Position numbers and translations under genes: made by a program. A DNA stretch of 64,000 nucleotides from Arenicellales bacterium (GTDB lineage: Bacteria; Pseudomonadota; Gammaproteobacteria; Arenicellales; Poriferihabitantaceae): positions 922,846 through 986,845 of the forward strand of contig OZ220677.1 in the NCBI GenBank assembly GCA_965116335.1. Reading direction: 5' to 3'. The notes beneath the pieces were generated by a model. The model was given only the letters and a program-made list of their open reading frames with translations, was not told where the DNA came from and did not search any database. Each line of letters starts with the position of its first letter. The stretch's first letter is position 1. Positions 22,049-42,196 of the stretch are shown here, one piece after another.

Positions 22049-22392
22049 TGACTATTCAACAATTCAACCCTCCGCATCCGGGTGGCTTGATCAAGCGGAC
22101 CTACATTGAGCCATTTCCAGATGTTACTGCGGCAGGTATTGCGCGCGAACTCGGTGTTTCCAAAAGTACTTTTAGTCGTTTACTCTCCGGGAAGTCTGAC
22201 ATTTCTCCAGAGATGGCGGTGAGGCTGTCGACGGTATTAGGTCGATCTGCTGAAAGCTGGCTGGCGCTGCAAGACAATCATGATTTGTGGAAAACCCGGC
22301 AGTCAGTGAATACCGATGGGCTGCAAAGGATTCAGTTCAAACAACCGGAAAGAGCAAGGCCGCGCCACGAGGAGGAGTCCGCCAGCGTGTGA
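22048..22392 (+). CDS. higA: HigA-type antitoxin (XRE-family HTH)
   Basis: HPGGLIKRTYIEPF...TAAGIARELGVSKSTFSRLLSGKSDISPEMAVRLS. TGATG overlap with higB. Confidence 0.85.
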   Translation: MTIQQFNPPHPGGLIKRTYIEPFPDVTAAGIARELGVSKSTFSRLLSGKSDISPEMAVRLSTVLGRSAESWLALQDNHDLWKTRQSVNTDGLQRIQFKQPERARPRHEEESASV

Positions 22393-22399
22393 AATGAAG

Positions 22400-25300
22400 T
22401 CAGTCCGTGTTGTCAACTTCGAGCACGATCCTGAGGTCTTCAATATGGGTGTCAAAAAAGTAAACGTTGACCGGCTGGTCGGCGAGTGTCAGTTCCAATT
22501 CACTGCCATTCAGGGTCAGGAACCTGTCCTTCAACTCGTCCTTCGAACCGTTGGCATGCCTGAACATCGCCGCATGATTCGGGCATAGAATGAGGTAGTT
22601 CTGGTAGTGGTGTCTCTCCAGATCCGGGAGAAACTCAACGGCCTCGAAAAAGTAGCTTCCATCAGCCAACCTGAAGGGGAGGCGACCCTTGCACACCTGA
22701 CAGATGGTCACGCCGGCGTTGGTATACATATCCCGCAGATAGGGATTGGTCTTTTCTCTTTTGATCGGGTCGCGATTGACAGACACGGACCGCTCACGCT
22801 TCTCGCTCGTGCGTTCAGGCGCTTCCCCGGCTTCCTTCCGAACCTTCTCCGCTCTTCGGTCACGGTTTCCGGGTGCACGGGTGGGGAGGTCGACAGGTTC
22901 TGCGTTCTCCGCAAGGATTCTCTGTCGGGTCTCTGGAGACAGCGCGGCAAATTGTCTTCCGTGGTCGAGCGCAGCCTCGTCTGGAAAGCCGAGTTCGGCG
23001 GCGATCTCCTGCTTTCTGCGGTGCTGTTCGATACGGTTTTTGGTTTCGGTGCCGAAGCGGATGGCGGTGAGCCAGGCCCATCCGGGATCGAACGGGAATC
23101 CATCCGGCAGGAGGTCTCTCGAAGCTTCAGCGGGGCGAACGAATACATCGTCCCCCTGAGGAACCCAAGCAGTGTTCCGCAACTGGTGAGCGAGCTGAGA
23201 ATCGGCGGAACGAGGGGCGTTCGACTGGTTGTATTGAAATATGGCCTTCCAGATGCTCTCGTCTTGTTGATTCCAGACAAGACGGGAAAGAGTCTCCTGT
23301 CGTTGCGCTGATAGTAACGGGTTGGAAAAGGTATTCCAGACAAGACGGGAAAGAGCTATGGTCGGTATTTCGAACAAAGATTCGAACCCGGGAATTACGA
23401 AGTCACGGTTTATTCCAGTATGCGTGAAGGAAGCTCCCGGAGCACCATGCAAGTACTCTTTTGCTGGATTGTTGGCGCAGGTGATAACCGCAATAATTTT
23501 GAGGCAGTCGGCTACACCGCACATTCGGGCGAATTGGATAAGTTTCTCCCGCAGGTCGAAGGTCTGGTAGCTGTCGGACAAGGCCGCGCGGTCCGATTCG
23601 GAGCCGAGGGATCGGTAGTAGACTTCCAATCCGGTTTCGAGATAAGGGGAGTCGAGGTACAGGTCGTTGGGCTTGGACCAGAGTCTGTCGGCTCGCTGCA
23701 ATATGAAATAGTCCTTGAAGAGGGAGCTTACGTTCCTGTCCTTCCTGTCCTTTTCGAAGAGCGCAATGAAACGTCTCAGGTCGGATTCATGGGTCTCCCA
23801 TGGCGGGACGTTGGCGGGGTCGGCGTATCGTGTTTTGAGAATGGACTCAACCTGCTCGAACTCACCAATCTCCCGGACGCCGATGCCCCCCAGGAAACTC
23901 CTGGCACCAGTCTGTTCCGACTTGGTTCCACCGCCCGTGTAAGTGTCTTCCGCAACGCGGGGATGAATGGGATCTTCACGAATCTCCGGGGTCGGGAAAT
24001 AGCATTCGCCTCCTGTCCTGTATTCGCCGTCCGAAAGTCTGACGATACAGATTTCATCGAACTGATCGATGTCGTCGCTTCCCAGTTCCCGATAAAAGAG
24101 GGCATACAATGCCCGGTGCCACTCTGCCGGTTTCCGGCGTATCCAGTCAAGAAACGGCTCATCGGGACCCTGCTCCTCCCCGAAACAGCCCCGGGGTTTA
24201 TTGGAGAACCGCTTGTCCAGTGCTTCCACGAACTGTTCGACTCCCCAAGGCTTGATGTCGAGGCCATTCAGGAATCGGTCAACCTCAGTGCTTCGTCGTG
24301 TCGCGGCTACCGCCCAGTCGCGCGGGACATCGTCGCTATCAATCAGAAAACGGATATCCTCGTGATCCAGCAAGACCTTCAGTCCGGCCTCCGCCTGCAG
24401 CAATTGATTGGCTGGAGCATGGCCGCCGGTGTGTGTCGGCGTAAGAGGTCGCTCGTTCATTTCGTCAACAATGGCGTCACGTATCGGCGTATACGGAGGT
24501 GGGATTGTGTCCTCGCTATTCGGCAGCACAGCCAGAAACTCCCGGTCAAGCAGGCCGAGGTCGCGGATTGATGACAGCGATTCGGCTGCAAGTCTGGCGA
24601 GTTGTGCGAAGAGTGGTGCGTTTGCTGGCGTGTCCTTGATACTGGAGCGGCTGAGTTCCGGGACGAAGGGCGCATGGAGATGGAATCGCAGGTTTGAAGT
24701 CTCCTTTGCGGCCGTGAAGTAGACCGCAACATGTCCGCGTTCGGCCGGAACAATCCGAAACTGCCTGGAGAGGGGCGAGTGCGTGTCCAACTGAACGTCC
24801 CCGGACAGCTGTTTGAGTTCGAAGGCGATGGCAATGTGCTGACATTCCATCTCATCAACCGGTTCGGTGAAGCGAAGGAAGTGGGAACTTTCGGTCGGCC
24901 TGCCGTCGATCTCCCGAAGAATCTCAATGTGGTGATCCGAATGCAGATTCTGGAGCAGGAGTCCTTCCTGGCCACCGTCTATCCACCACTGGATCTCTTT
25001 AATATTGGACAGGAACAACAGGGTGTTGTCAGAAATATCCTCCAGCCCGTCCCGCACTTCCAAGAGAGCCTGAGCTTGTGGCTTCCTCCCGGAGTCGAAC
25101 GGAAACTCGAACCGCGTGTGACCGTTCAGGGCCGGGTTCGGTGGGATTTCCGACGGGAGTACCATTTCGGAAATCTTGAAGGCGAAGCTCGGCGACCAGA
25201 TGCGAGGTGAAGCCGTGTAGAGGAAGGCCGCCTTGAAGCCGATTCCGAAGCGACCGATTGTATCACTATCATCTTTTGTGCTGAATCCTATACCTGTAAT

Positions 25301-25543
25301 GGCTCTAACGTCTTTATAGTCGAACGGTCTCCCGTTATGTTCAAACGTCAAGCAAGTGTTAAAGAGACGAAAGTTTACTTCCGTTGCTTCTGCATCTTCA
25401 GCATTTTGTAGTAGTTCGTAAATGAAATGTGCTTTATCCGGATAAAAGTCATCGAATAAATCCAAGTTGATGTCGCCTTCATTGACCGCAAGGCCATCCA
25501 AGAATTTTTTTCGTTTTTCTCTTAGGGTCTCAAAAAAATTCAC
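22400..25543 (-). CDS. sacsin/MORC-like GHKL ATPase with C-terminal HNH-like (CxxC...HH..N..CPNH) nuclease module, 1047 aa
   Basis: N-terminal ELLQNAEDA (25391..25417), EHNGRPF, GRFGIGFKAAF form a Bergerat fold. C-terminal CQVCKGRLPF...ERHHYQNYLILCPNHAAMF (22574..22702). GTG start overlaps the stop of the upstream SNF2 gene (GTGA). Confidence 0.75.
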   Translation of the reverse strand: MNFFETLREKRKKFLDGLAVNEGDINLDLFDDFYPDKAHFIYELLQNAEDAEATEVNFRLFNTCLTFEHNGRPFDYKDVRAITGIGFSTKDDSDTIGRFGIGFKAAFLYTASPRIWSPSFAFKISEMVLPSEIPPNPALNGHTRFEFPFDSGRKPQAQALLEVRDGLEDISDNTLLFLSNIKEIQWWIDGGQEGLLLQNLHSDHHIEILREIDGRPTESSHFLRFTEPVDEMECQHIAIAFELKQLSGDVQLDTHSPLSRQFRIVPAERGHVAVYFTAAKETSNLRFHLHAPFVPELSRSSIKDTPANAPLFAQLARLAAESLSSIRDLGLLDREFLAVLPNSEDTIPPPYTPIRDAIVDEMNERPLTPTHTGGHAPANQLLQAEAGLKVLLDHEDIRFLIDSDDVPRDWAVAATRRSTEVDRFLNGLDIKPWGVEQFVEALDKRFSNKPRGCFGEEQGPDEPFLDWIRRKPAEWHRALYALFYRELGSDDIDQFDEICIVRLSDGEYRTGGECYFPTPEIREDPIHPRVAEDTYTGGGTKSEQTGARSFLGGIGVREIGEFEQVESILKTRYADPANVPPWETHESDLRRFIALFEKDRKDRNVSSLFKDYFILQRADRLWSKPNDLYLDSPYLETGLEVYYRSLGSESDRAALSDSYQTFDLREKLIQFARMCGVADCLKIIAVITCANNPAKEYLHGAPGASFTHTGINRDFVIPGFESLFEIPTIALSRLVWNTFSNPLLSAQRQETLSRLVWNQQDESIWKAIFQYNQSNAPRSADSQLAHQLRNTAWVPQGDDVFVRPAEASRDLLPDGFPFDPGWAWLTAIRFGTETKNRIEQHRRKQEIAAELGFPDEAALDHGRQFAALSPETRQRILAENAEPVDLPTRAPGNRDRRAEKVRKEAGEAPERTSEKRERSVSVNRDPIKREKTNPYLRDMYTNAGVTICQVCKGRLPFRLADGSYFFEAVEFLPDLERHHYQNYLILCPNHAAMFRHANGSKDELKDRFLTLNGSELELTLADQPVNVYFFDTHIEDLRIVLEVDNTD
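22422..22442. repeat. left copy of a perfect 21-nt direct repeat AGCACGATCCTGAGGTCTTCA
   Basis: Identical 21-mer at 29749..29769, checked base by base. This copy lies within the last ~14 codons of the GHKL-HNH gene. Confidence 0.9.
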
Positions 25544-28500
25544 TGAACTGAATCCGTTGTAATTTTCAAAGTTCCTTGAACAACTAGGGTAGCGTGGATG
25601 TCGGCACTTTCCGCCAGCCTTTCCAACTCGGCAATCCGGCTCTCATAGTCATAGTTCGCACGCGCCAATTCGCTTTCCTTCATCCGACGAATCTTGTCGT
25701 TTGTCGCGGCTCCGACCTGGCCCTCCAACAACTTGCATCGGGCCCCGTGGCTGGTTCTCAAGCTTTGCCGCCGGTGGTGAACGAGTTCCCGGTTCTCCGC
25801 CACATGATTTGCGCGTGCTGCACGCCATTTGCCGTGGTGCCGCTTATCAAGGCGTTCAATCGCGACTTCGTCAAGCAATGTGCCGTCGGGCGTGTCCACT
25901 GCAACTTCCAACAGGGACATCACCGCGCTGTCCAATTCGGGGTTCTCGGTGACGGACACCAGCGTGTCATCGGATCGAATACCGACATTGCGCCACTGGT
26001 AGAGGGCGAACGGATATTCACCCGGTGGGACAGTTTCGCTTGATGCGATCAGACTGACCTGCACCGCTTGGGAGCGTTTCAGGTGCCGCGCCGCCTGCCT
26101 GAGCAGTGGATGCAGAACGTTGAGATAGACGGCCTTCGGCTCGGCGGCAGCGGCTTCCTGGTCGAAGGTGACCGGCAGCAACGGGTCCGCGCCTCTGAGC
26201 CACTTTTCCCATTGCCGGGCGACCGGATCGGTGGATCGCGGCTGGCCCCGGAAGTCAGCGAGTAGCCTGGCCCGGATATTCTGGCCGAGGCGCAGAGTCT
26301 TAAGAGGTTTGTCGCCGAGCAGAAAATCGCCGTCAGTCTCCGACACGCCCGACAGATAAATGGTAACGCATCGTTGCAGTGCCTCGGCGGACAACCAGAA
26401 GCTCTCAGCCTCCGCGATCTCCTTGCGCCACGACTGGTTTGGAACCGTCAGGCCGAACAGTTCGGCTTGCTTTTCCTCTAACGCTGTCTCTTCCTGAACC
26501 TGGCGGATCTTGTTGTCACCTAGTTGCTGCAGGCGCTCGGCACGCTGTTCCGCCGTCAGCATGAAGCTGTCGGCAATATTGTGAATCTCCCGGGTGATCT
26601 CGCCGAGAATTTCTTCGCTACCGCCGACCGCGTGATGGAATACACCGATGCGCATCAGACAGCGTTCGTAGATGTCCGCGTCGACCGTGCCGGGCGTCAC
26701 CAGGTTGACGATGGCGACGCTCTCGCTCTGCTGGCCGTAGCGATCGATACGCCCGATACGTTGTTCGATACGCATGGGGTTCCACGGCAGATCGTAGTTA
26801 ATTAACAGGTCACAGAACTGGAAGTCAAGCCCTTCGCCGCCGACCTCCGAGGAAAGCAAAACATCCAGCGCCTCCGGGTCGTCCTTCGGCGAAGCGAATC
26901 GGCGGCGCAACTCGGCACGCTGGTCGTCCGGAACGCCGCCGTGCACGAGACCGTAGCGCAAGCCCGCATCCGCGACGTGTTTCTCGATATAGGCGAGTGT
27001 GTGCCGAAAAGTGCTGAAGGCAAGCGCCTTGTTGTTGTCCATCCGACCCTTGTCCCGCAGTACGCTGATGAATACCTGCACCTTGGGGTCGAAGGAATCG
27101 AGATCGTCGGCATGCTCCAGGAGCATCTCGACATCGGTTCGTATCTCGGCAAGAAAATCAGCATCGATGGGAGTCTCGCCATCGGTCCCGTCTGTCGTTT
27201 CAAGACTGTCGAGCTTTCCGACAAGCATATCGCGCAATAGTGGCGCCAGTCCGTAAAGGCAGCTCGCCGCCTGACGACGGATCGTGGTCATCATGAACTT
27301 GACGTTCTGCTCGCCATGGGCACGCGCCAGAATGCGGCTTACCACATTGAGGAGGTCATCATGCAGTCGGCGCTGGTCGGGCGTGAACTCGACCGTCAGC
27401 GTTTCTGGCCGACGGGTCGTGAACTCCCCGATATCCCGGCGGCGAGTCCGGTTAATCATCGGACTGAAGGTATAGAGTTCCTCCAGAGACCGGATGATGC
27501 GAATACGGCTGGCGTCGTCGATATGCTCCTCCGCCAGACGATCATAGATGTCCTGAAACGCTGGCGATTCTCGCAGGAAAAGGAGACCCCACTCGGTCTG
27601 TGCGGCTTGCCCCAAGCATTTGCGGGCTTCGGCCTGCCAGCGATCTCCTTCCGCACGGCAATGGCCCACGGCTGCGTTAATGAACCCGTTGGGCGCAGCC
27701 ATCTGCTCGAAGCTCGGGCGGTCGATGACGAGGTCCGGCCGCAGTACGTTCAGCAAGGTAAAGAGGTCTTGACTGCCAAGTTGCACCGGGGTGGCGGTGA
27801 GAAAGACGGCGGCCTGGGCGTTGTCGCAGAAATAGCGCACCGCTTGGTGAAGGTAGGTATCCGGGTTGCGAATATGGTGCGCCTCGTCGACGATCACGAG
27901 ATCAAATCTGGGCGGCGGGTCAAGTGCGAGCAGTCCCTGGCTAGCTCGCGCCCCCCTTACCTTCTTGCCAAAAAGCAGATCCGAATCAAACAGGGAGAAC
28001 GGTAGTATAGCCTTGGCATAGCGGTCGGGCCATTCACCCTCCAAGTCCATTTCCCGCAGACAGTGGCGTAGCATTCGACCGTCGAGAGTCTCGAAATGCT
28101 CGTCAAAACGCTTCATCTCCACGAACCACTTGCGCTCGGTAACCAGCGCCTTGGGGCAGATGATCAGCACCGAGGAAATGTCCGTCCGTGCCCGCAACTC
28201 TTTGATGATCAGCCCAGCCTCAATCGTCTTGCCCACGCCCACCTCGTCGGCAATCAGCAGACGAGGTCGGTCGGCCCGGATCAATCTCAAAACGGGGCGA
28301 TACTGATAAGGCACGAAGTGAATGCGCCCGGACCGCAGCGAATACAGGTTAGCGGTGGACGGCGAGAGCAGATGCAGGCTGGTCAGATGGGCGCGTACTT
28401 CGCCAGCACTGAGTAGAGAAGGTTCGTCTGAGGACTCAAGGGGCCGCAGCTGGCTCTCGTAGTAGGTCGCCTGACGATTGTCCTGGAAAACCTGGTAGCG

Positions 28501-29160
28501 TGCCTCGGCGGCACTGTCCATGACTCCAATGATCGGCACCACAATGCCGGGGTCGGAACGCAACGCCACGAGGTTACCGACCTTGAATATCGTCGTTGCT
28601 GCCTGTGAAGAGACAGCAGAAATTTCGCGGTCGCTCGGTGCCGTAATCGAATCAGCGGTATTGTCAGGATGGAGCGAGGAAGTCTGGGGGGCGTCGGACG
28701 GCACCGTCATGTCGGAAAGAGCATCTCTCTTAAACGCTTCGACCGTCGCGACGGAGGCAGGCGTGGCGCCAAGCATATCCAGAACACGAGCAAGTGTGTC
28801 GACATCCCGGTAAAGGTCTTCAGCCCGGACTGGCGACACCGACAGGTGCGCCCATTGATTGCGAACGGCTTGCAGCTCCCTGACCAAAGTGCGTCCCTCG
28901 CGCGGCAGATTGAGCACCTGCGAGAGTTCGTACCAATTCTGGTCCAGGATTCGCAACAGGGCAGCAAAATCTAACTGTTCCAGCTTGGTGAGCCCACGTT
29001 CCTCCACGGTACGCTGCTGTTGGAAGCTCAGACGGTTCGCGACATACGTTTTCCACCAGCCCTCGCCAAGAGTGGACAGGTGAGTCGCAAGAAAAGCGGC
29101 AAGCTCGACAGTTGCGATGCGAATCAGTTCATGCATGAAGTGAAGAGCCGTTGACAACAC
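25540..29160 (-). CDS. SNF2-family helicase with N-terminal HEPN (Swt1-like, RNQWAH) domain, 1206 aa
   Basis: RNQWAH at aa 100-105 (28846..28863). DEVGVGKT (motif I), VIVDEAHHIRN (II), LLSSEVGGEGLDFQ (V), QRIGRIDRYGQ (VI). ~300-aa C-terminal extension. GTG start at 29160; alternative ATG at 29136. Confidence 0.8.
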   Translation of the reverse strand: MLSTALHFMHELIRIATVELAAFLATHLSTLGEGWWKTYVANRLSFQQQRTVEERGLTKLEQLDFAALLRILDQNWYELSQVLNLPREGRTLVRELQAVRNQWAHLSVSPVRAEDLYRDVDTLARVLDMLGATPASVATVEAFKRDALSDMTVPSDAPQTSSLHPDNTADSITAPSDREISAVSSQAATTIFKVGNLVALRSDPGIVVPIIGVMDSAAEARYQVFQDNRQATYYESQLRPLESSDEPSLLSAGEVRAHLTSLHLLSPSTANLYSLRSGRIHFVPYQYRPVLRLIRADRPRLLIADEVGVGKTIEAGLIIKELRARTDISSVLIICPKALVTERKWFVEMKRFDEHFETLDGRMLRHCLREMDLEGEWPDRYAKAILPFSLFDSDLLFGKKVRGARASQGLLALDPPPRFDLVIVDEAHHIRNPDTYLHQAVRYFCDNAQAAVFLTATPVQLGSQDLFTLLNVLRPDLVIDRPSFEQMAAPNGFINAAVGHCRAEGDRWQAEARKCLGQAAQTEWGLLFLRESPAFQDIYDRLAEEHIDDASRIRIIRSLEELYTFSPMINRTRRRDIGEFTTRRPETLTVEFTPDQRRLHDDLLNVVSRILARAHGEQNVKFMMTTIRRQAASCLYGLAPLLRDMLVGKLDSLETTDGTDGETPIDADFLAEIRTDVEMLLEHADDLDSFDPKVQVFISVLRDKGRMDNNKALAFSTFRHTLAYIEKHVADAGLRYGLVHGGVPDDQRAELRRRFASPKDDPEALDVLLSSEVGGEGLDFQFCDLLINYDLPWNPMRIEQRIGRIDRYGQQSESVAIVNLVTPGTVDADIYERCLMRIGVFHHAVGGSEEILGEITREIHNIADSFMLTAEQRAERLQQLGDNKIRQVQEETALEEKQAELFGLTVPNQSWRKEIAEAESFWLSAEALQRCVTIYLSGVSETDGDFLLGDKPLKTLRLGQNIRARLLADFRGQPRSTDPVARQWEKWLRGADPLLPVTFDQEAAAAEPKAVYLNVLHPLLRQAARHLKRSQAVQVSLIASSETVPPGEYPFALYQWRNVGIRSDDTLVSVTENPELDSAVMSLLEVAVDTPDGTLLDEVAIERLDKRHHGKWRAARANHVAENRELVHHRRQSLRTSHGARCKLLEGQVGAATNDKIRRMKESELARANYDYESRIAELERLAESADIHATLVVQGTLKITTDSVQ

Positions 29161-29206
29161 GTGACGATGTCTGAAATCGTTCTGGTGTAGAAAGTTTCAT
29201 GACATC

Positions 29207-29235
29207 CTTATAGACGATGAGTGCGTATACTTCAA
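29207..29235 (-). promoter_or_regulatory. candidate sigma70 promoter of the SNF2/GHKL operon (TTGAAG-N17-TATAAG) with a GTATAC palindrome in the spacer
   Basis: Minus strand reads ccTTGAAGtatacgcactcatcgtcTATAAGg, ~45 nt upstream of the start codon. Confidence 0.45.
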
Positions 29236-29313
29236 GGTCGGGGCGATATGCCACGTATGTTAAAAGCTGGTTTCGGAAACGGAACCCGGCGTATACATTA
29301 GCCGAATCAGTAG

Positions 29314-29364
29314 ATGAACAAATACAAGTATTATGCGCGATGGTCGGATCGGGCAACCGACCCG
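29314..29364 (+). pseudogene. 5' stump (~17 codons) of an RHH/CopG-like regulator gene, paralog of 44081..44389
   Basis: ATGAACAAATACAAGTATTATGCGCGATGGTCGGATCGGGCAACCGACCCG aligns with the first ~51 nt of the intact gene. The upstream GTATACATTAGCCGAATCAGTAG is also shared. Homology stops where the small-gene promoter begins. Confidence 0.7.
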
Positions 29365-29373
29365 GAATCCGGG

Positions 29374-29402
29374 TTGACCCGGCGGCGCAATCCAGCCAGA
29401 AT
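29374..29402 (+). promoter_or_regulatory. sigma70-like promoter TTGACC-N17-CAGAAT of the small TM/coiled-coil gene
   Basis: The same TTGACCCGGCGGCGCAA..CAGAATAG block is repeated upstream of the paralog at 40725..40753 (minus). Confidence 0.6.
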
Positions 29403-29406
29403 AGGG

Positions 29407-29437
29407 ACACCAGAAAAGAACAGACAGGCAACGAACC
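29407..29437 (+). promoter_or_regulatory. conserved A-rich 5' leader ACACCAGAAAAGAACAGACAGGCAACGAACC (copy 1 of 3)
   Basis: Near-identical sequence abuts the ATG of three genes (29438, 40689, 40318). No canonical GGAGG. Confidence 0.6.
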
Positions 29438-29734
29438 ATGACACCAGAACTATACGCAATTATCGGAGTAGGCCTGGCATTGGCCGGAGTACTTATCCCG
29501 GCCAGCAATCGCCAGAGCCGGGATATTGCCGGACTACGGGAACAAATGAACCAGGACATTACCGGACTACGGCAAGAGATCAACCAGGACATTTCCGGAC
29601 TACGGCAGGAAATCAGCCAGCAGGGGCAACAAATCAACCAGGTTGCCCGGCAGGTGGGGCACTTGTCCGGCTTGCTGGAAGGCTTGCGAGGCCGTCCAAT
29701 CGTGACAGAGCAACCGGAAGAAATCCGGGCTTAA
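29438..29734 (+). CDS. small N-terminal-TM coiled-coil protein with 11-residue repeats (98 aa), unknown function
   Basis: LYAIIGVGLALAGVLIP TM, then DI(A/T/S)GLR(E/Q)xxNQ x3, then C-terminal VGHLSGLLEGLRGRPIVTEQPEEIRA shared with the paralog at 40375..40689. Confidence 0.65.
   Translation: MTPELYAIIGVGLALAGVLIPASNRQSRDIAGLREQMNQDITGLRQEINQDISGLRQEISQQGQQINQVARQVGHLSGLLEGLRGRPIVTEQPEEIRA
29522..29620 (+). repeat. in-frame tandem repeat, 3 x 33 nt (GAYATTNCCGGACTACGGSARGARATSARCCAG)
   Basis: Read directly. Encodes DIxGLRxxxNQ hendecads. Confidence 0.85.
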
Positions 29735-29748
29735 GCGACCGGCTGACC

Positions 29749-29769
29749 AGCACGATCCTGAGGTCTTCA
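29749..29769. repeat. right copy of the perfect 21-nt direct repeat AGCACGATCCTGAGGTCTTCA
   Basis: Identical to 22422..22442. Lies 12 nt downstream of the glpD stop, in the convergent intergenic gap. Confidence 0.9.
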
Positions 29770-29780
29770 TTCCCACCTGT

Positions 29781-31400
29781 TCAATTGTCGCCCCTGAAAT
29801 ACTCCTTGAATTTTTCCGGTCCCTGTTCGCCGAACAGACGGTCGCATAACTCCGGCATGCCGGGCATGGTCATTAACTCCTCGCGCCTGTAGAGCAGCGC
29901 CAGCCGAGAGCGTCGGCGCAACAGGTCGGACAACGTGACGACCATTTCATAATCCCGCAAATGATCAATTTCACAAAGACGCAGTCCGGTTCCGGCAATA
30001 GCCGGAGCAGCCAGGGCTGGATTAGCCTCGACCGCATCGAGTATGACGCTGGCTCCGTGGCCGTAACGCCTCCACAGGCGTTCAGCAAGGGGCTCGCCGG
30101 TGTCAGCAGCCCGGTCATCTGTGATACCGGCCTGCGCGGCCTGCGCCAGAAACGCCGCTCGCGCCACCCTGTCTGGTTCACCGTACCAGCGTGGCGGCTT
30201 GCGTGCCAGTGTGATCCCCAGCCTGGAGACCTGTTGGCAGATTTCTTCGCCGATGTTGATGCAGTCGGTCAGCTTGCCCCCGAAGATGCTGATTTGCCGT
30301 CTCGGACGGTTTATCTCCACTACGTGCTTGCGCGAGAGCTGGAGGACATCCATGTCGGTATCGGCGCCTGTAGCAACCACCAGTGGCCGGACTCCGCATC
30401 GCTCGGCGATAATGTCTGATCTCATCAGCGGACGCGGCAGATTCAGTCGGGCATTGATATTGGACAGTATAAAATCCCGGTCCTGATCGGTGACCGCGGT
30501 ATCGTGCGTATCCACGCGGGTATCGGTGGTTCCGATGCAGGTGCGGTTGGCCATTGGGATGGCAAAGAACAAGCGACCATCATCGGCGAAAAAAGTCAGC
30601 ACCTTGTCGCCCTCTCCGATGCGGGGGACGATCAGGTGAACGCCCTTTGACAGGATATGCTGATGCTTCGCCTGGATACCGGCAGTTGCGTTCAATGTAT
30701 CGACACAGGCTCCGGTAGCGTTGATCAGCGCCTTGCTGCGAATCTCGAAATTTTGACCGGAAACGCCATCCTTCGCCAGCGCTCGCCACTGCCTGCCCTC
30801 ATCCCGCAATTCCACTGCTTCCACGTAATTAGCGGCCATACCCCCCTGCTCAAGCGCACAACGGATGAACCCGAAAACAAAACGCGCATCGTTATCAAAC
30901 AGGTAAGCGTCTGAATACTCCAGTCCGCCGATACTGTGGCGGGTATCAATGACTGGCTCCACCGCGCCAATGGTGGCGGCACGCAAATAGCGAGGTGAGC
31001 GGGTATATCCCTGCCCGATCAACCAGTACAACCAGGCTCCGGCCCACAACACAGAAGGGTGATGACGAAAGCCGCGGGAAACCGTGGTCAGGAAGCGAAT
31101 TTCCCGGACAGCGCTGGGAAACTGCCGCATCAGGTCATTGCGCGACTTGCACAACTCCGTCACGAGGCCGAGCTCGCAGCTTTCCATGTACTTGATGCCA
31201 CCCCAGATCAGATTGGATGAATGCTGGCTGGTAAGTCCGGCGAAGTCTCTGCCATCAATCAGGCCAACCTTTACGCCTCGAGCCGCCAGTGACGCGGCGC
31301 ACACGGCGCCATTGATCCCCCCGCCAACGATCAGGACATCCAGAAAGTTGCGCGACAGCGCATCCAGATTTTGTTCACGCAGTGACACTATCCTTAACAA
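29781..31400 (-). CDS. glpD: FAD-dependent glycerol-3-phosphate dehydrogenase
   Basis: LDVLIVGGGINGAVCAASLAARG and HSSNLIWGGIKY motifs. The 597-aa track ORF overlaps the DUF2160 gene, so an internal TTG (31400) or GTG (31388) start is likelier. Start uncertain. Confidence 0.8.
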   Translation of the reverse strand: MLRIVSLREQNLDALSRNFLDVLIVGGGINGAVCAASLAARGVKVGLIDGRDFAGLTSQHSSNLIWGGIKYMESCELGLVTELCKSRNDLMRQFPSAVREIRFLTTVSRGFRHHPSVLWAGAWLYWLIGQGYTRSPRYLRAATIGAVEPVIDTRHSIGGLEYSDAYLFDNDARFVFGFIRCALEQGGMAANYVEAVELRDEGRQWRALAKDGVSGQNFEIRSKALINATGACVDTLNATAGIQAKHQHILSKGVHLIVPRIGEGDKVLTFFADDGRLFFAIPMANRTCIGTTDTRVDTHDTAVTDQDRDFILSNINARLNLPRPLMRSDIIAERCGVRPLVVATGADTDMDVLQLSRKHVVEINRPRRQISIFGGKLTDCINIGEEICQQVSRLGITLARKPPRWYGEPDRVARAAFLAQAAQAGITDDRAADTGEPLAERLWRRYGHGASVILDAVEANPALAAPAIAGTGLRLCEIDHLRDYEMVVTLSDLLRRRSRLALLYRREELMTMPGMPELCDRLFGEQGPEKFKEYFRGDN

Positions 31401-31425
31401 GTCGAATCTTGTGACTGTCAGCCAG

Positions 31426-31719
31426 TCATACCCACCTGAATACGAACAGGAACCAGACCACGGAAATGCCCAGCGGAATCCACAGCGGCGTACCGACCAG
31501 CCCCAGCCACAGCAAGTGAATAAACCCGGCGCCAAGCCATGAAATGAACAAACGGTCGCCACGGGTGGTATCAATCCGCAATATTCCGCGCCGGGGATTG
31601 CCGCCGGGGCTGAATGCCTCCCAGACCCCCATGACGGCTATGGATAGCGCCAGCGCCAGGAAAAACGCGCCGGTAGGCCAGGTCCACGCCATCCAGGTCA
31701 GGTCGAATACGTCGTTCAT
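31426..31719 (-). CDS. DUF2160 small membrane protein
   Basis: 97 aa, 3 TM. This family accompanies ABC-type glycerol/polyol uptake loci. Confidence 0.7.
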   Translation of the reverse strand: MNDVFDLTWMAWTWPTGAFFLALALSIAVMGVWEAFSPGGNPRRGILRIDTTRGDRLFISWLGAGFIHLLWLGLVGTPLWIPLGISVVWFLFVFRWV

Positions 31720-31739
31720 CTGTTCGCTCCCGGGCTCCC

Positions 31740-32546
31740 CTAGACTCGACCCAGCGCGAAGCCGCGAGCAATATAATTACGCACGAAGTAAATCACGAAT
31801 CCACCCGGAACGATGGTCAGGGTTCCGGCGGCAGCCAGCAGTCCCAGCTCATAACCGGATGTACTGGCGGTGCGCGTCATGGTCGCCGCAATCGGCTTGG
31901 CTTCCACCGCAGTCAGCGTCTTGGCGAGCAGCAATTCCACCCATGAGTACATGAAACAGAAAAACATCGCTACGCCGATACCCGCCGCGATAGTCGGGAT
32001 GAATATACGAATAAAAAAGCGCCAGAATGAATATCCGTCCAGCCAGGCGGTTTCATCCAGTTCTTTGGGCACTGCGGACATAAAGCCCTCCAGTATCCAG
32101 ACGGCCAGCGGGATGTTGAACAGGCAATGCGCCAATGCTACGCCGATATGGGTATCGAACAGGTCAATGGCGGAGTAGAGTTGATAGAATGGGAGCGCGA
32201 ATACCGCAGGCGGCGCCATTCGGTTAGTCAACAGCCAGAAAAACAGGTGCTTGTCACCGAGGAAGCGATAGCGGGAAAATGCGTAGGCTGCCGGCAGTGC
32301 CACGCCGACCGAGATCAGGGTGTTCATCACGACATAGCTGATGGAGTTGAGATAACCCGTATACCAGGTGGGATCGGTGAATATCTTGCGATAATTGTCC
32401 AGCGTAAACTCTCTCGGCCAGAGGGAGAACACACCCAGAATCTCATTGGTGGTCTTGAACGACATACTGACCAGCCAATAGATGGGTAACATCAAAAAAA
32501 CGATGTAGAGTGTCGTGACAAGGGCTTTGCTGGTACGGTTTTGCAT
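31740..32546 (-). CDS. carbohydrate ABC transporter permease
   Basis: 268 aa, MalG-type fold with the EAA-like region ETAWLDGYSFWRFFIRIFIP. Confidence 0.85.
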   Translation of the reverse strand: MQNRTSKALVTTLYIVFLMLPIYWLVSMSFKTTNEILGVFSLWPREFTLDNYRKIFTDPTWYTGYLNSISYVVMNTLISVGVALPAAYAFSRYRFLGDKHLFFWLLTNRMAPPAVFALPFYQLYSAIDLFDTHIGVALAHCLFNIPLAVWILEGFMSAVPKELDETAWLDGYSFWRFFIRIFIPTIAAGIGVAMFFCFMYSWVELLLAKTLTAVEAKPIAATMTRTASTSGYELGLLAAAGTLTIVPGGFVIYFVRNYIARGFALGRV

Positions 32547-32549
32547 GGT

Positions 32550-33413
32550 TTAGCGCTCCTCGTCCCGCATCATCAGCGTGTAGAATACCCAGCATACCAG
32601 CAATACCACCAGGAAATAGATCAGTGACATGGCTGCTGCCGGACCGAGATCGAACTGACCGAGCGCAATCTTGACCAGATCAATGGACAGGAATGTAGTG
32701 GTATTGCCGGGGCCGCCGCCGGTCAGCACGAACGGCTCGGTGTAGATCATGAAGCTGTCCATAAAGCGCAACAATATGGCGATGGTCAGCACCCGTTTCA
32801 GCTTGGGTAACTGGATGAAACGCAAAACCGCCCAGCCACTGGCGCCGTCAATACGCGCCGCCTGATAGTAGGCATCCGGGATAGAACACAGTCCGGCATA
32901 GGCCAACAATGCTACCAGAGAAGTCCAGTGCCAGACATCCATGACCACGGTGGTGACCCATGCCGATACCGGCTGTTGGGTGAAGTTGTAGTCTATACCC
33001 AGGCTATTGATGGTTTTACCCAGCAAACCAATGTCCGGCAGAGCGAAAATATTCCACATGGCGCCCACTACATTCCACGGGATCAGAAGCGGCAACGCCA
33101 TGAGTACAAGGCAGACCGAGACCCAGACTCCCTTGCGCGGCATACAAAGAGCCACGGCGACTCCCAGCGGCACCTCGATCAGCAGGATGGTAAAGGTGAA
33201 TGCCAGTTGTCGCATCAGCGAAGCATGGAAGCGTTCAGAGGTCAGCACCTCCTGAAACCAGCCCACGCCATGCCAGAAAAACAGGTTATTGCCAAAGGTT
33301 TCCTGGACTGAATAATTGACCACAGTCATCAACGGGATCAGGGCGTTGAACGCTACCAGCACCACCACCGGCAACACCAGCCACCAGGCTTTGCGGTTAG
33401 CGAGCCCGTTCAT
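32550..33413 (-). CDS. carbohydrate ABC transporter permease
   Basis: 287 aa, MalF-type, with AARIDGASGWAVLRFIQLP. Confidence 0.85.
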   Translation of the reverse strand: MNGLANRKAWWLVLPVVVLVAFNALIPLMTVVNYSVQETFGNNLFFWHGVGWFQEVLTSERFHASLMRQLAFTFTILLIEVPLGVAVALCMPRKGVWVSVCLVLMALPLLIPWNVVGAMWNIFALPDIGLLGKTINSLGIDYNFTQQPVSAWVTTVVMDVWHWTSLVALLAYAGLCSIPDAYYQAARIDGASGWAVLRFIQLPKLKRVLTIAILLRFMDSFMIYTEPFVLTGGGPGNTTTFLSIDLVKIALGQFDLGPAAAMSLIYFLVVLLVCWVFYTLMMRDEER

Positions 33414-34501
33414 GCCGATGCCTCCGGCCGGTCAACCAACCAGCCGTCGAGATAACAGTGAGTGTGTACCGGATCGAACCGTACCGCGGGTTTCTGGTCC
33501 GGGATGCCTGTACCTTCGGGGACGATTATTTTCAACCGTTCAGCGCCAGCCTGCACGTCTGCGACTCGATACCTGCCTAAATCATCGACCTTGTTGATTC
33601 GTACCGGAATGCACGGGTCATGGTCATCGAATTGTATGAATTCAGGGCGCACGCCCAATTCCAGCGTCTCACCATGCAAGCAACTATCCGGCAACGGGCC
33701 GAAATCCCGCTCCAGGCAACGCAACCGACCATCTTCGCAGGTGGCTGGCAGCAGGTTCATGCCGGGAGAGCCAATGAAGTGCCCGACAAATGTATGCCGT
33801 GGCCGCTCGAACAGCTCTACCGGAGTGCCGACCTGAACCACCCGGCCCTGAAACATCACGACGACTCGATCAGCAAAAGTCAACGCTTCGGTCTGGTCAT
33901 GAGTGACGTAGATCATGGTGACGCCAACCTCTTTATGTAGCTGCTTGAGCTTGGAGCGCAACTGCCACTTCAGGTGCGGGTCAATCACTGTCAGCGGTTC
34001 ATCGAACATGATCACATTGACATCCGGGCGCACCAGACCCCTGCCTAATGAAATTTTCTGCTTGCCGTCCGCAGTCAGGCCGGACGCCCGTTTTTGCAGG
34101 GTATCGGACAGATCAAGCATGGCCGCAATCTCCTGTACACGGGGCCGGATTTGTGCTTCGGGAACTGCCCGATTGCGCAGGGGAAACGCCAGATTGTCGT
34201 ATACAGTCATGGTGTCGTATACCACCGGAAACTGGAATACCTGGGCAATATGCCGCTCCGATGTGCTGATACCGTTCACCTCCTGTCCGTCAAACAACAC
34301 CCTGCCCTCGGTCGGACTGATCAGGCCGGAGATGATATTGAGCAACGTAGTCTTGCCGCACCCGGACGGTCCCAACAGGGCATACGCGCTGCCATCCTCC
34401 CAGACCTGATTGACCTCCTCCAACGCCCAAACCGGCTCCTCACTGCGGGCAGCGGGATAGCTGTGGCGAATGCCGTGGAGTTCAATACGCGCCATGTTCA
34501 A
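33410..34501 (-). CDS. ABC transporter ATP-binding protein
   Basis: LLGPSGCGKTT Walker A, LSGGQ-like LTADGKQKISL, IMFDEPL Walker B. Confidence 0.85.
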   Translation of the reverse strand: MNMARIELHGIRHSYPAARSEEPVWALEEVNQVWEDGSAYALLGPSGCGKTTLLNIISGLISPTEGRVLFDGQEVNGISTSERHIAQVFQFPVVYDTMTVYDNLAFPLRNRAVPEAQIRPRVQEIAAMLDLSDTLQKRASGLTADGKQKISLGRGLVRPDVNVIMFDEPLTVIDPHLKWQLRSKLKQLHKEVGVTMIYVTHDQTEALTFADRVVVMFQGRVVQVGTPVELFERPRHTFVGHFIGSPGMNLLPATCEDGRLRCLERDFGPLPDSCLHGETLELGVRPEFIQFDDHDPCIPVRINKVDDLGRYRVADVQAGAERLKIIVPEGTGIPDQKPAVRFDPVHTHCYLDGWLVDRPEASA

Positions 34502-35565: not shown

Positions 35566-35579
35566 GCGCCAGAGCCTGC

Positions 35580-36386: not shown

Positions 36387-36473
36387 GGTCAAACCCGTAT
36401 TGCCATTTGTGGTATCGAAGATAAGGCGCGGGCTGTCCGGCCAGCGGAACAGCCCACACTTCAATCCGGCAGA

Positions 36474-38201: not shown

Positions 38202-38314
38202 GGTAGATTCCTCATTAGTGAAAATGGCGCACCGACCCGCGGGAACCTGCGGAACCTGACGGACGGTGATTTGTTGATACTCAACACCGTCATCTTAACA
38301 CGCCGAAAACCGAA

Positions 38315-40021: not shown

Positions 40022-40318
40022 TCAGCCGCCCGCCGCCAAACTGGATACATCGCGCCAGATAGCGAACAAAAAGCCCAACATAACCAGCGTAAAAGCAAAA
40101 TGTAATCCGAACATCCAGCGCAATCCGGCAATATCGCCCTTTAATGATTTCTCCAGGCCAGCCATTTCCCGCCGTAATCCGGTAATATCACCCTTTGTCG
40201 CCAGCTCGCCGGACTGGTTCGCCATAACCTCGGCCACTGCTTCGGCCTGCTCGGTCTTGAATCCGGCCTTTTCCAGTTTCCGCATTGCGGCCAGTGTGTC
40301 TATCGCTACGGTTGTCAT
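40022..40318 (-). CDS. DUF1640-family coiled-coil protein with C-terminal TM helix (98 aa)
   Basis: MTTVAIDTLAAMRKLEKAGFKTEQAEAVAEVM is the typical DUF1640 N-terminus. GDITGLRREMAGLEKSLKGDIAGLR, then TM FGLHFAFTLVMLGFLFAIW. Internal ATG 40318 follows the conserved leader. Confidence 0.7.
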   Translation of the reverse strand: MTTVAIDTLAAMRKLEKAGFKTEQAEAVAEVMANQSGELATKGDITGLRREMAGLEKSLKGDIAGLRWMFGLHFAFTLVMLGFLFAIWRDVSSLAAGG

Positions 40319-40349
40319 GATTCGTTGCCTGTCTGTTCTTTTTTGGTGT
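40319..40349 (-). promoter_or_regulatory. conserved A-rich 5' leader (copy 3): ACACCAAAAAAGAACAGACAGGCAACGAATC
   Basis: Differs from copy 1 at ~3 positions. Abuts the DUF1640 ATG. Confidence 0.6.
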
Positions 40350-40374
40350 TCCCGGTCTTGCCTGCCTCGGCTTA

Positions 40375-40689
40375 TCACGCCTGTATTGCTTCCGGTTGCT
40401 CTGTCACCATTGGCCGCCCTCGCAAGCCTTCCAGCAAGCCGGACAAGTGTCCCACCTCGCGGGAAACTTGGTTAATCTCTTGCCGTAGTCCGGCAATATC
40501 CTGATTCATTTCTTGCCGTAGTCCGTTAATCTCTTGCCGTAGTCCGTTAATCTCTTGCCGTAGTCCGGCAATATCCTGATTGACTTGTCCGGCCAGCCGA
40601 TTATTGGCCGGTATGATTACCCCGGCCAATGCTACGCCCACGCCGACAATGGTAATAATCAGCAAGATTAACGCGGTTGTAATAGTCAT
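40375..40689 (-). CDS. small N-terminal-TM coiled-coil protein, paralog of 29438..29734 (104 aa)
   Basis: TM ALILLIITIVGVGVALAGVIIP. DIAGLRQEINGLRQEINGLRQEMNQDIAGLRQEIN. C-terminal VGHLSGLLEGLRGRPMVTEQPEAIQA. Confidence 0.65.
   Translation of the reverse strand: MTITTALILLIITIVGVGVALAGVIIPANNRLAGQVNQDIAGLRQEINGLRQEINGLRQEMNQDIAGLRQEINQVSREVGHLSGLLEGLRGRPMVTEQPEAIQA
40472..40584 (-). repeat. in-frame mosaic of 21-nt (GLRQEIN) and 33-nt (GLRQEMNQDIA) tandem units
   Basis: TTAATCTCTTGCCGTAGTCCG occurs 3 times (40472, 40526, 40547), interleaved with a 33-nt variant. Confidence 0.85.
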
Positions 40690-40721
40690 GGTTTGATGCC
40701 TGCCTGTTCTTTTCTTGGTGT
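40690..40721 (-). promoter_or_regulatory. conserved A-rich 5' leader (copy 2): ACACCAAGAAAAGAACAGGCAGGCATCAAACC
   Basis: Aligned by eye with copies 1 and 3. Confidence 0.55.
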
Positions 40722-40724: not shown

Positions 40725-40753
40725 ATTCTGGCCGAGTTGCGCCGCCGGGTCAA
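40725..40753 (-). promoter_or_regulatory. sigma70-like promoter TTGACC-N17-CAGAAT (paralogous to 29374..29402)
   Basis: Minus strand reads GGGTTGACCCGGCGGCGCAACTCGGCCAGAATAGAA. Confidence 0.6.
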
Positions 40754-40761
40754 CCCGGAGA

Positions 40762-42177
40762 GTTGTCCAATGGAAGATGAGCCTGAAGGATGATCTGTAT
40801 TTCCATCGGGAGATGAGCCTTTCGGCGTTGATTTTGGGATCATCGGAGGATGATCGTGAAATTACACAGCCAGCGTTTACAGACGGTGGAGGAGATTCGT
40901 TCCTTTCTGGACGGAGCCACCACTTTTGATTTTGAACCCCAATCCCGCAAACAAACCTACCGATGGCTCTGTGACAGCTTGCGGCAGGTACGGTATTCCT
41001 TGCTCAACAAGACCGACCGGGGGATCGTCAAGACCTATCTGGAAAAGGTCAGTGGCTTGTCCCGCGCACAGGTCACCCGGTTGATCCGACAGTATCGCGA
41101 CAGTGGATGTATCCAGGATCGTCGGGGAAGACCCGCTAACGCTTTCTCCCAGCGCTATACGTCAGCAGATGTCGCTTTGTTGGTTCAAACCGATACCCTG
41201 CACGGCAACCTGTCCGGACCCGCTACCCGAAAACTGTGCGAACGCGCCTTTCTGGTATTCGGCGATACCCGATACGCGCGACTGGCTACAATCTCCAACG
41301 GCCACCTCTATAACCTGCGACACTCGGATGCCTACCAGCGCAAACGACGACACTTCCAGAAAACCCGACCTACTCCAGCAAAAATCGGAGTCAGACGAAT
41401 ACCCAGACCCAATGGCCGACCCGGCTTCTTGCGCGTCGATACCGTACATCAGGGCGACCAGGACGGCATCAAGGGGTTGTATCACATCAATGCCGTCGAT
41501 GAAGTCACCCAGATGCAGGCCATAGTCAGTGTGCAGAGAATCTCTGAAAGCTATCTCATCCCGGCCCTGCATGAATTACTCCAAGCCTTCCCCTTCACTC
41601 TCCTGGGATTCCATTCCGATAACGGTTCAGAGTATATCAATCACACAGTCGCCAAACTATTGCAAAAACTCCATATCGAACAAACCAAATCACGACCCAG
41701 ACAGAGTAATGACAATGCCCTGGTCGAAGGCAAAAATGGTTCCGTCATCCGTAAGCATCTGGGATACGAACACATCTCACAGCACTTCGCTCAACCCGTC
41801 AATGACTTCCTGGTTCATGTACTCACTCCCTACCTCAACTACCACAGACCCTGCCTGTTCGCAAAGGAAGAAATCAACCAAAAAGGAAAACGAATCCGTA
41901 AATACCCGCACTCACTCATTCAGACTCCTTACGAAAAACTCCGATCCTTACCCAATGCACAACAATATCTCAAACCAGGAGTAACCTTCAAAAAACTGGA
42001 TGACTTCGCTCACCAATACAGCGATAATGAAGCCGCAAAAAGACTCAACGAAGCACGCAATACACTATTCCAATCTTTTAACAATTCCCAAAATTACGCC
42101 GCCTGAAAAACTCTCTCAATGTCTAGAAATATAATCACAATAGACAACACGCTCAGGCTCATCTCTGGATTGGAAAA
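40762..42177 (+). mobile_element. insertion sequence (~1.4 kb) with imperfect ~26-bp terminal inverted repeats
   Basis: Left end GTTGTCCAATGGAAGATGAGCCTGA vs reverse complement of the right end GTTTTCCAATCCAGAGATGAGCCTGA. Core AGATGAGCCTGA at 40775..40786 and 42152..42163. Single rve transposase inside. Exact ends approximate. Confidence 0.7.
40850..42106 (+). CDS. DDE transposase / integrase catalytic core (rve domain)
   Basis: 418 aa. DTVHQGD...FHSDNGSEYIN...NALVEGKNG are the spaced D, D, E residues. N-terminal HTH-like region. Confidence 0.8.
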   Translation: MIVKLHSQRLQTVEEIRSFLDGATTFDFEPQSRKQTYRWLCDSLRQVRYSLLNKTDRGIVKTYLEKVSGLSRAQVTRLIRQYRDSGCIQDRRGRPANAFSQRYTSADVALLVQTDTLHGNLSGPATRKLCERAFLVFGDTRYARLATISNGHLYNLRHSDAYQRKRRHFQKTRPTPAKIGVRRIPRPNGRPGFLRVDTVHQGDQDGIKGLYHINAVDEVTQMQAIVSVQRISESYLIPALHELLQAFPFTLLGFHSDNGSEYINHTVAKLLQKLHIEQTKSRPRQSNDNALVEGKNGSVIRKHLGYEHISQHFAQPVNDFLVHVLTPYLNYHRPCLFAKEEINQKGKRIRKYPHSLIQTPYEKLRSLPNAQQYLKPGVTFKKLDDFAHQYSDNEAAKRLNEARNTLFQSFNNSQNYAA

Positions 42178-42196
42178 CGCTCCCGGATTCCCACCC

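Follow-up and report, generated by a model that had tools for sequence, protein, structure and literature searches.

The subject of this report is a short conserved block ahead of three small genes, A, B and C, in a 64,000-nt stretch of Arenicellales bacterium (GCA_965116335.1, contig OZ220677.1, positions 922,846-986,845 of the forward strand), the whole of which is referred to here as the window. The block at 29360-29437, in front of gene A, is best read, with a probability of roughly 0.55, as one copy of an ~83-nt expression module that heads many members of a lineage-specific, heavily recombining gene family in sponge-associated Arenicellales, forming the common 5' end of homogenised cassettes and offering a structure-free translation start with a weak Shine-Dalgarno (SD) sequence. 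The module would join three parts: the CCGGGAATCCGGG element at its upstream end, a promoter of the sigma-70 type (TTGACC/17 nt/CAGAAT) and a leader of ~31 nt, which is U-free, A/C-rich and predicted to be unstructured, with a vestigial AGG at the SD position. The family is predicted to encode small membrane-anchored coiled-coil proteins, namely DUF1640/CCDC90-like tail-anchored proteins together with relatives anchored by an N-terminal helix, and its genes often lie beside mobile elements.

In the proposed mechanism, recombination or gene conversion would keep the cassettes (leader, coding region and 3' flank) nearly identical among paralogues, even across species. The module would give each member the same transcription signal, and the open, pairing-poor leader would let ribosomes find the AUG with little SD help, whichever coding cassette follows. 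Judged from sequence, the most likely function is a common transcription signal joined to a structure-free ribosome landing site for any cassette.

The module in the window

The features on which the argument is built are the following.

29360..29373 (+): upstream element ACCCGGAATCCGGG, abutting the -35 of A; 5' boundary of the conserved module, where similarity to other copies stops
29374..29402 (+): predicted sigma-70-type promoter of A (consensus scan), -35 TTGACC at 29374-29379, 17-nt spacer, -10 CAGAAT at 29397-29402
29407..29437 (+): 31-nt leader of A, ACACCAGAAAAGAACAGACAGGCAACGAACC; A16 C9 G6 U0, predicted to be unstructured
29438..29734 (+): gene A (98 aa), with its membrane helix at the N-terminus, the 11-residue (33-nt) repeat NQDIxGLRQEI in three copies, and the tail QQINQ..VGHLSGLLEGLRGRP
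40725..40759 (-): predicted promoter of B (consensus scan), CCGGG, -35 TTGACC at 40753-40748, 17 nt, -10 CAGAAT at 40730-40725
40690..40721 (-): leader of B, ACACCAAGAAAAGAACAGGCAGGCATCAAACC, with a 1-nt insertion (pattern and core matches, alignment of copies)
40375..40689 (-): gene B (104 aa), with its membrane helix at the N-terminus, a mixture of 11- and 7-residue repeats, and the C-terminal tail of A
40319..40361 (-): leader of C (40349-40319) with a decayed -10 region and no -35
40022..40318 (-): gene C, 98 aa; DUF1640/CCDC90-like, with a two-helix head, LATKGD beta-layer motif, DIxGLR repeats and a C-terminal membrane helix
39894..40021 (-): conserved 3' flank of the C cassette, TGATAGCGCGGTTGTCCCGGACTGG..., common to other family members including A-type genes (3' flanks of L001, L003, L005 and L008)

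A near-identical leader of ~31 nt directly 5' of the ATG in all three genes had been reported in the first-pass annotation of this DNA and was recovered here, as its degenerate 31-mer has exact matches at 29407-29437 (+) and 40319-40349 (-) and none in any of 100 shuffles. The full pattern misses the leader of B because of the 1-nt insertion there; the 17-nt core AAAAGAACAGRCAGGCA occurs three times, at 29414 (+), 40326 (-) and 40697 (-), with 0.15 occurrences expected by chance and no shuffle reaching three. The coordinates of the three genes held, and their strand was corrected to minus for B and C. The similarity between A and C spans 49 nt (29395-29443 versus 40313-40361) at 86%.

The promoter block ascribed to two of the genes was found in A and B, where TTGACCCGGCGGCGCAA is exact at 29374 (+) and 40753 (-) and is followed by CAGAATAG. 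The restriction to two genes holds for the window, in which C showed neither -35 nor -10 in the consensus scan and its decayed -10 reads AAGACC; the orthologous C in the sister strain L009 and in L003 carries the full promoter. With 9 of 12 consensus positions in both A and B and a spacing within 16-18 nt, TTGACC/17/CAGAAT is predicted to be a sigma-70-type promoter, from which transcription would start near 29406-29409 in front of A. The leader of C starts 25 nt past the stop of B, C has no -35 or -10, and no terminator was predicted between the two genes, so that B and C look like one operon.

Distribution and conservation of the module

The leader core was scanned for in one genome per species, with separate scans of metagenomes and viral contigs, and further paralogues were fetched by protein identity. 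The genome scan returned only two long-read metagenome-assembled genomes (MAGs), those of Candidatus Poriferihabitaceae bacterium (4 loci) and Arenicellales bacterium (2 loci), and the metagenome scan added one true locus, a second hit there (L007) being a chance match to the leader pattern. The viral contigs gave no matches, and a phage origin of the leader was rejected on that ground. Among the copies added via protein identity is one from an Ircinia variabilis sponge metagenome. The search beyond the window suggested earlier was thus productive, and placed the leader in sponge-associated Arenicellales only.

Altogether 16 module copies from at least 7 assemblies were aligned, standing ahead of five N-terminal gene classes, of which two begin with a membrane helix (MTPELYAII.. 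and MTITTALILL..) and three with a DUF1640 head (MTTVAIDTL.., MTAYTIDTL.. and MNTAVAIDTL..). Family genes fetched without regard to the leader possessed it in 5 of 9 cases. An orthologue of B (P0057, 94%) from the Ircinia variabilis sponge metagenome carries the canonical module, and the protein of gene A is identical to P0071. A module-bearing Y-type copy at 75-119 (-) of L004 has a premature stop after 14 codons (MTAYTIDTLGIARE*) with promoter and leader intact, and is likely a pseudogene.

Similarity between the copies begins at (A)CCGGGAATCCGGG just before the -35 and ends at ATGAC, which delimits a module of ~83 nt. Mean pairwise identity was 0.56 over the 80 nt beyond the module upstream, the level of unrelated sequence under this scoring, 0.75 over the 47-nt promoter part and 0.90 over the last 36 nt, the leader; the first 90 coding nt gave 0.73 over all pairs, 0.91-0.99 within a class and ~0.6 between classes. 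A recent segmental duplication would leave flanks equally conserved over hundreds of bp, and the random identity (0.56) upstream of about -83 is not of that kind, which supports the block as a discrete conserved unit rather than the edge of a long duplication. Within the promoter part, the hexamers are kept in 13-14 of the 16 copies, the first third of the spacer is variable and its second half, GCGCAACCCGGCC, is also conserved. The upstream element is kept as (A)CCGGGAATCCGGG in 12 of the 16 copies, and is tandemly repeated in L002 and upstream of B. The family sharing these signals would probably be co-regulated.

The claim that the leader is as conserved as the coding regions, or more so, stands between classes (~0.90 versus ~0.6) but not within a class, where coding identity reaches 0.91-0.99. 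That the leader is shared with a DUF1640 gene of unrelated N-terminus was borne out, with ~0.90 identity ahead of unrelated coding starts. The leader has also been kept where the promoter has not, in window C (decayed -10) and in L005 (-35 lost), and in L013, from a more distant genome, it is kept in two tandem copies with 16 nt inserted between the -10 and the leader. Being better preserved than the promoter, common to classes with unalignable coding starts and able to outlive the promoter, the leader appears to be constrained somewhat beyond cassette homogenisation.

These numbers bear directly on a simpler explanation, in which the leader is under no selection of its own and is a pure by-product of a fast-turnover family whose duplication or gene-conversion unit includes the 5' untranslated region (5' UTR). 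This account, which we regard as a serious rival on the unlikely side, agrees with within-class coding identity (0.91-0.99) that equals or exceeds that of the leader, with the two substitutions that the promoter-less leader of window C shows and no other copy has, and with the homogenisation of the C cassette across species, silent sites and 3' flank included. It also agrees with L019, in which the four A/B-type paralogues of a tandem array have in common another promoter and another leader, this one with an SD, just what simple tandem duplication predicts. It does not sit well with a leader at 0.90 beside an adjacent promoter at 0.75 inside the same conversion unit, with the sharing of that leader across classes whose coding starts cannot be aligned, or with its persistence without a promoter and past an insertion separating it from the -10. 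The U-free composition and an opening energy within the 1.8% tail of random leaders (see below) speak against it as well.

Leader structure and translation start

With the composition A16 C9 G6 U0, the leader consensus contains no start codon, and an in-frame TAG conserved inside the -10 region closes the reading frame, so that the ATG is the only possible start. In none of five sequence contexts did the minimum-free-energy fold pair the leader or the AUG, and the z-scores ranged from -1.7 to +1.1; the structure analysis envisaged in the first-pass annotation thus found no structure in these contexts. The opening energy of the region -20..+12 averaged 4.2 kcal/mol over 13 native-leader copies and 9.9 kcal/mol over 13 other window genes; when the same coding starts were placed behind random 31-mers from the window, it was 11.0 +/- 3.6 kcal/mol, with 1.8% as low.

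No SD core of at least 4 nt is found in -20..-4 of the leader, only AGG. The reported absence of a GGAGG-type SD is correct in that no GGAG-type SD exists, but the AGG remains 9 nt before the ATG, where paralogues have GGAG. Two paralogues in L006 have the same leader with CGGAGAAC in place of the common CAGGCAAC, and because their GGAG falls at the same place, the AGG sits at the SD position and amounts to a weakened SD. In L013 the AGG lies 4 nt further upstream, indicating that the remnant is not fixed in position. Translation would be expected to start with little SD help.

The near-invariance of the leader core can be read as a specific regulatory target, in which the core binds a trans-acting factor controlling the family, be it an RNA-binding protein (Hfq, on the (ARN)3-4 run AAGAACAGA, or another), a small RNA (sRNA) or a DNA-binding repressor at +1 to +30. 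Hfq prefers A-R-N triplets, and AGAAAGAACAGA is readable as four of them; the near-invariance of AAAGAACAG-CAG-CA-C-AA-CATG in 16 copies exceeds the needs of an unstructured spacer, and the second half of the promoter spacer, GCGCAACCCGGCC, is conserved beyond the needs of sigma-70. We consider such a target improbable, since no complement of at least 11 nt to the leader was found outside the modules in 257 kb of sequence, and the covariance models of Rfam matched nothing, whether in 29000-41000 (E <= 1) or, by gathering score, anywhere in the window. The leader offers no structure or covariation to analyse and has no dyad symmetry, and paralogues with other leaders stand in the same clusters. 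On these grounds a trans-acting complement of the leader was rejected (no complementary 11-mer cluster outside the modules in the 257 kb), and so was an RNA structure or riboswitch, the leader folding unpaired and lacking an Rfam match.

The protein family

The opposite topology described for the three proteins was confirmed by Kyte-Doolittle hydropathy, which places the membrane helix at residues 5-23 in A, 8-26 in B and 69-87 in C (maximum 2.14 in C). C has 56 detectable relatives among 5.8 billion proteins, almost all on the same few long MAG contigs or on small metagenome contigs, and the A/B type has 39, all from the same lineage or from metagenomes. Relatives of C possess a head helix pair, in which IDTL...GF..QA is invariant, and the beta-layer motif LATK(A/G)D; their 7- or 11-residue repeats vary in number, the membrane helix comes after an invariant RW, and the tail is one of ~5 alternatives.

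In C itself the beta-layer motif is L39-A-T-K-G-D44, in which L39 and T41 are invariant and A40, K42 and D44 at least 90% conserved (27 homologues); for DUF1640, Hartmann et al. (PMC4786415) described [aliphatic]-A-T-K-x-[DE] as a motif with which the stalk begins. The AF2 monomer model of C comprises head helices H2-17 and H22-38, a break at residues 39-41 (LATK) and one long helix thereafter. A family profile built from the 27 homologues matched the CCDC90B head-GCN4 chain 6H9M with E = 0.0065 over profile positions 4-64, and a Foldseek search of the C model against PDB gave no significant match. The Pfam PF07798 scores were 26.7 bits for C (E = 5.8e-6), 17.0 for A and 18.7 for B, all under the gathering cut-off of 33.5; many close homologues of C carry a precomputed PF07798 match. 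A single C-terminal membrane helix after a coiled-coil stalk is present in C and not in A and B, in which the helix is N-terminal. By motif and architecture, the C-type proteins would be placed with the DUF1640/CCDC90-like family, although C itself falls below the Pfam cut-off.

For the A/B type no named family was found, the searches giving only weak coiled-coil-type matches, and spanin, MbeD and other named families were set aside for that reason. The C-terminal part of A and B (QQINQ..VGHLSGLLEGLRGRP) recurs as 'tail 3' on the DUF1640-headed P0046 and L002, and these hybrids link the A/B and DUF1640 architectures. The proteins do have distant relatives in phages and on plasmids, among them phrog_17872 (E = 9e-13); DUF1640 genes occur on plasmids of Vibrio and Methylomonas and in Bordetella and APSE phages.

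Recombination and mobile elements

At least 25 combinations of head, membrane helix and tail occur among the 56 proteins, which requires repeated recombination. Paralogues, counted as cluster representatives sharing one longest contig, number ~15 on a 2.99-Mb contig and 8-9 on two others. L003, from another species, is syntenic with the window in the order cbiA - C - glpK, and third-codon identity between the two is 0.98 for C, 0.89 for glpK and 0.70 for cbiA, with the noncoding 3' flank of C 0.96 identical. The C cassette, silent sites and 3' flank included, is thus far more alike than its neighbours, so that recombination or homogenisation explains much of the leader conservation. The conserved 3' flank TGATAGCGCGGTTRTCCCGGAC.. 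is common to A-type and C-type genes.

Rearrangement can also be followed within the window. The closely related strain L009 has C with a full promoter and is without B, the insertion sequence (IS) and the repeat-protein genes, indicating that the B-C junction in the window is a recent rearrangement. Upstream of B, 42182-42260 (-) holds a remnant of a family 3'-flank module (GCGCGGCCATTATCCCGGACTGGATAAAA) and a duplicated GGGAATCCGGG element, which stood ahead of the B promoter before the IS was inserted, so that B once followed another family cassette. The features concerned are listed below.

40760..42181 (+): IS element, 1.42 kb, rve transposase at 40850-42106 (418 aa), with inverted repeats and target duplication CCGGG; 5 nt upstream of the -35 of B
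29304..29364 (+): 5' fragment of hypothetical gene X, made up of 17 codons and the region ahead of them and joined to the module of A; 89% to 44339-44399, with the same junction upstream of L002
44081-44389 (-): intact gene X, ~101 aa; adjoins cbiA, no Pfam match

A 98.8% copy of the IS stands in another assembly (L011, 768-2190) in the same relative position, before the promoter of a diverged paralogue, with the duplication GATCA; this suggests a target preference for promoter-upstream sequence, or co-transfer of IS and promoter. Family copies adjoin the same IS in two genomes and an integrase and a DDE transposase elsewhere, and one tandem pair lies inside an integrative and conjugative element (ICE).

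A site-specific recombination joint, proposed earlier as a means of cassette shuffling, would make the leader or upstream element the attachment site of an integron- or shufflon-like system that moves cassettes behind a fixed promoter. Such a joint would account for the sharp module boundaries, for the fusion of unrelated DNA at fixed points (the gene X fragment at 29364/29365, the same in L002, and the 3'-flank remnant at 42182-42260) and for window C beginning at the leader right after B. The 5' limit of similarity, however, is not constant, lying at about -83 in most copies but at -58 in L005 and at -49 in window C; neither the module nor the 3' flank has an inverted repeat or attC-like fold, and no recombinase is consistently adjacent, the neighbouring rve gene being that of an ordinary IS, which has inverted repeats and a target duplication of its own. 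Most copies have their own promoter and do not depend on a common one. The joint is disfavoured by the variable 5' limits and the lack of inverted repeats and of a dedicated recombinase, to the point of being hardly credible. An integron-type cassette was rejected likewise, as there is no attC-like inverted repeat and the adjacent gene encodes the rve transposase of the ordinary IS and not a tyrosine-recombinase integrase.

Several observations touch the same subject. The tandem family genes at 10001-10841 of L013 lie inside an ICE (TraG-type coupling protein, DUF2857, DUF3577, AcaB, topoisomerase, SSB, ParA), and both carry the module variant with the 16-nt insertion after the -10. In L019 (1918-3703), from an unrelated lineage, the four tandem A/B-type paralogues, with a ..ERMAHLEGLLEGLREAI tail and variable EEINGLR heptads, stand upstream of an ABC/HlyD/OEP exporter and share their own conserved promoter and a 60-nt leader with an AAGGAG SD. 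A mid fragment of gene X (42256-42286) is fused to the family 3'-flank remnant, and X-like genes recur in the family clusters of L004, L005 and L006.

Selection on the leader weighed against cassette copying

Several points weigh against the expression-module reading. Family-wide recombination of whole cassettes is an ordinary main cause of the conservation of the block, and coding starts of one class are conserved no less than the leader, which leaves purifying selection specific to the leader no more than possible. A structure-free leader should tolerate many substitutions, and the near-invariance of AAAGAACAG-CAG-CA calls for recent copying or a further constraint. The weak-SD state is dispensable in the family, as GGAG leaders (the two L006 copies) and unrelated SD-bearing leaders (the L006 B-type gene, L008, L011 and L012) serve paralogues and a B-type orthologue. 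A crude SD survey of the window, in which the gene starts themselves are uncertain, found SDs at 10 of 37 first starts versus a background of 9%, and cannot show that a weak SD is unusual in this organism. The promoter of the module, finally, is a predicted one with a match of only 9 of 12 consensus positions.

The argument for selection on the RNA itself therefore held in part: the leader outlasts the promoter and is shared across classes, but whole-cassette recombination explains much of the conservation. Purifying selection on the leader and a clustering of recombination breakpoints at the ATG are not separable from the present data. The expression-module reading can also be carried further, so that the module would be both a dedicated unit for portable expression, its U-free leader permitting translation that needs no SD, is insensitive to context and is perhaps controlled by a factor, and, together with the 3' flank, a homology anchor for cassette exchange, generating a combinatorial repertoire of membrane coiled coils in sponge symbionts as a diversity system for interactions with host, phage or mobile elements. 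This extension is speculative and, in our estimate, unlikely.

Relation to known systems

The closest counterpart is the DUF1640/CCDC90-like family (PF07798; MCUR1, CCDC90B and prokaryotic relatives), with which C and its 56 relatives share the beta-layer motif, the stalk and the C-terminal membrane helix, and perhaps the two-helix head (xIDTLxxxRKLEKAGF..EQAEA). In contrast to that family, the present proteins are much shorter (80-160 aa), with C below the Pfam cut-off; up to ~15 or more paralogues occur per genome, with heads, membrane helices and tails exchanged combinatorially; and a derived A/B form lacks the head and is anchored N-terminally. To our knowledge, no such expansion, shuffling, A/B form or shared promoter-leader has been described for DUF1640/CCDC90-like proteins, and we know of no bacterial function for the family.

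In Mycoplasma, the paralogous vlp/vsp genes for variable lipoproteins share a near-identical promoter and 5' region, and their repeat-containing coding parts vary; the region coding for the signal peptide is conserved too, and the genes use phase-variable promoters or site-specific inversion. The present family differs in that it shows no homopolymer or invertible element, its conserved part ends at the ATG, and its products are small inner-membrane coiled coils. The Bdr genes of Borrelia form a multigene family of unknown function on mobile replicons, in which repeat number varies and alleles are reassorted by homologous recombination (PMC3303823). The likeness is one of analogy only (multigene family, mobile context, variable repeats, recombination), as there is no homology, the host lineage is another and no SD-poor shared leader is known for Bdr. 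Homology was specifically rejected: the B31 cp32-1 Bdr matches KID PF02524 (E = 8.6e-21) but has no match to PF07798, and its alignment to the family profile by hhalign has a probability of 0.2%.

Recognition of start codons without an SD has been proposed to proceed through a local absence of structure (PMC3121790; survey PMC5397173), and the present leader, lacking a 4-nt SD core, predicted to be unpaired and low in opening energy, fits this pattern. It differs in being one fixed leader reused across many genes rather than a diffuse compositional trend, and in retaining an AGG. Paralogue families with near-identical 5' expression regions were already known, as was SD-less translation from unstructured leaders (PMC3121790, PMC5397173); what is new is the combination, a single fixed U-free weak-SD leader that recurs before coding starts with no relation to one another, within an expansion of DUF1640 that is combinatorially shuffled among sponge symbionts.

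If the expression-module reading is true, the family would provide a natural case of one structure-free weak-SD leader before many unrelated coding starts, with a bearing on how translation starts without a strong SD, and the leader could serve as a portable 5' UTR. The family would then be a previously undescribed, strongly recombining DUF1640/CCDC90 expansion of bacterial relatives of the mitochondrial MCUR1/CCDC90B. A part in the interactions of the symbionts with their host or with phage is suggested by its restriction to sponge symbionts, its variable repeat numbers and the mobile elements around it. No general principle is changed; the conservation has an ordinary main cause in cassette homogenisation, and a role of the leader at the RNA level is what we infer from its sequence. 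The module is real, but it owes its conservation mostly to copying throughout the family and does not represent a new type of RNA element.

Genomic surroundings

Gene A sits between an HEPN-SNF2 helicase gene (25540-29160) and glpD, the partner of the helicase being a GHKL/sacsin-like ATPase at 22400-25543; B and C are located after glpK. The pair at 22400-29160 (-) consists of the GHKL/sacsin-like ATPase (1047 aa) and the HEPN(Swt1-like)-SNF2 helicase (1206 aa), and is likely a defence-type cassette. The first-pass annotation had placed one family copy inside this SNF2/GHKL cassette, which found no support here, as A simply has the HEPN-SNF2 gene on one side and glpD on the other, and the orthologues in L001 (A-type) and L018 (B-type) occur in other contexts. 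The sister strain L009 is without 22392-39452, that is, the ATPase/helicase pair, A and most of the glycerol cluster, with a 154-aa glpK fragment left; since the whole segment is missing, L009 is uninformative on a place of A in the cassette.

Together with their modules, A and B make up an inverted repeat, 29368-29730 (+) and 40379-40759 (-), with 84-87% identity over stretches of 75-106 nt. The pair brackets a 10.6-kb glycerol cluster (glpD, a ugp-like ABC transporter, a DeoR regulator, a binding protein and glpK) and could allow its inversion; the orientation of C beside glpK is unchanged in the two relatives compared, L003 and L009.

Two secreted-looking paralogues at 42542-43045 and 43082-44056 (-) carry ~23-residue repeats GxxVDGKKNGHWV.. 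(69-nt tandem repeats in the DNA), the larger with a peptidoglycan-binding domain, and both are without counterpart in the syntenic region of L003 and L009. In the metagenome contig L008 (~700-870), an open reading frame that ends in ..LERLANIARQWGVTKTGALERMIEQAGRDRGAA runs by ATGA into the start codon of a B-type gene, an arrangement that indicates translational coupling. This B-type gene is without the type-1 leader, and the upstream reading frame looks by eye like a ribbon-helix-helix protein.

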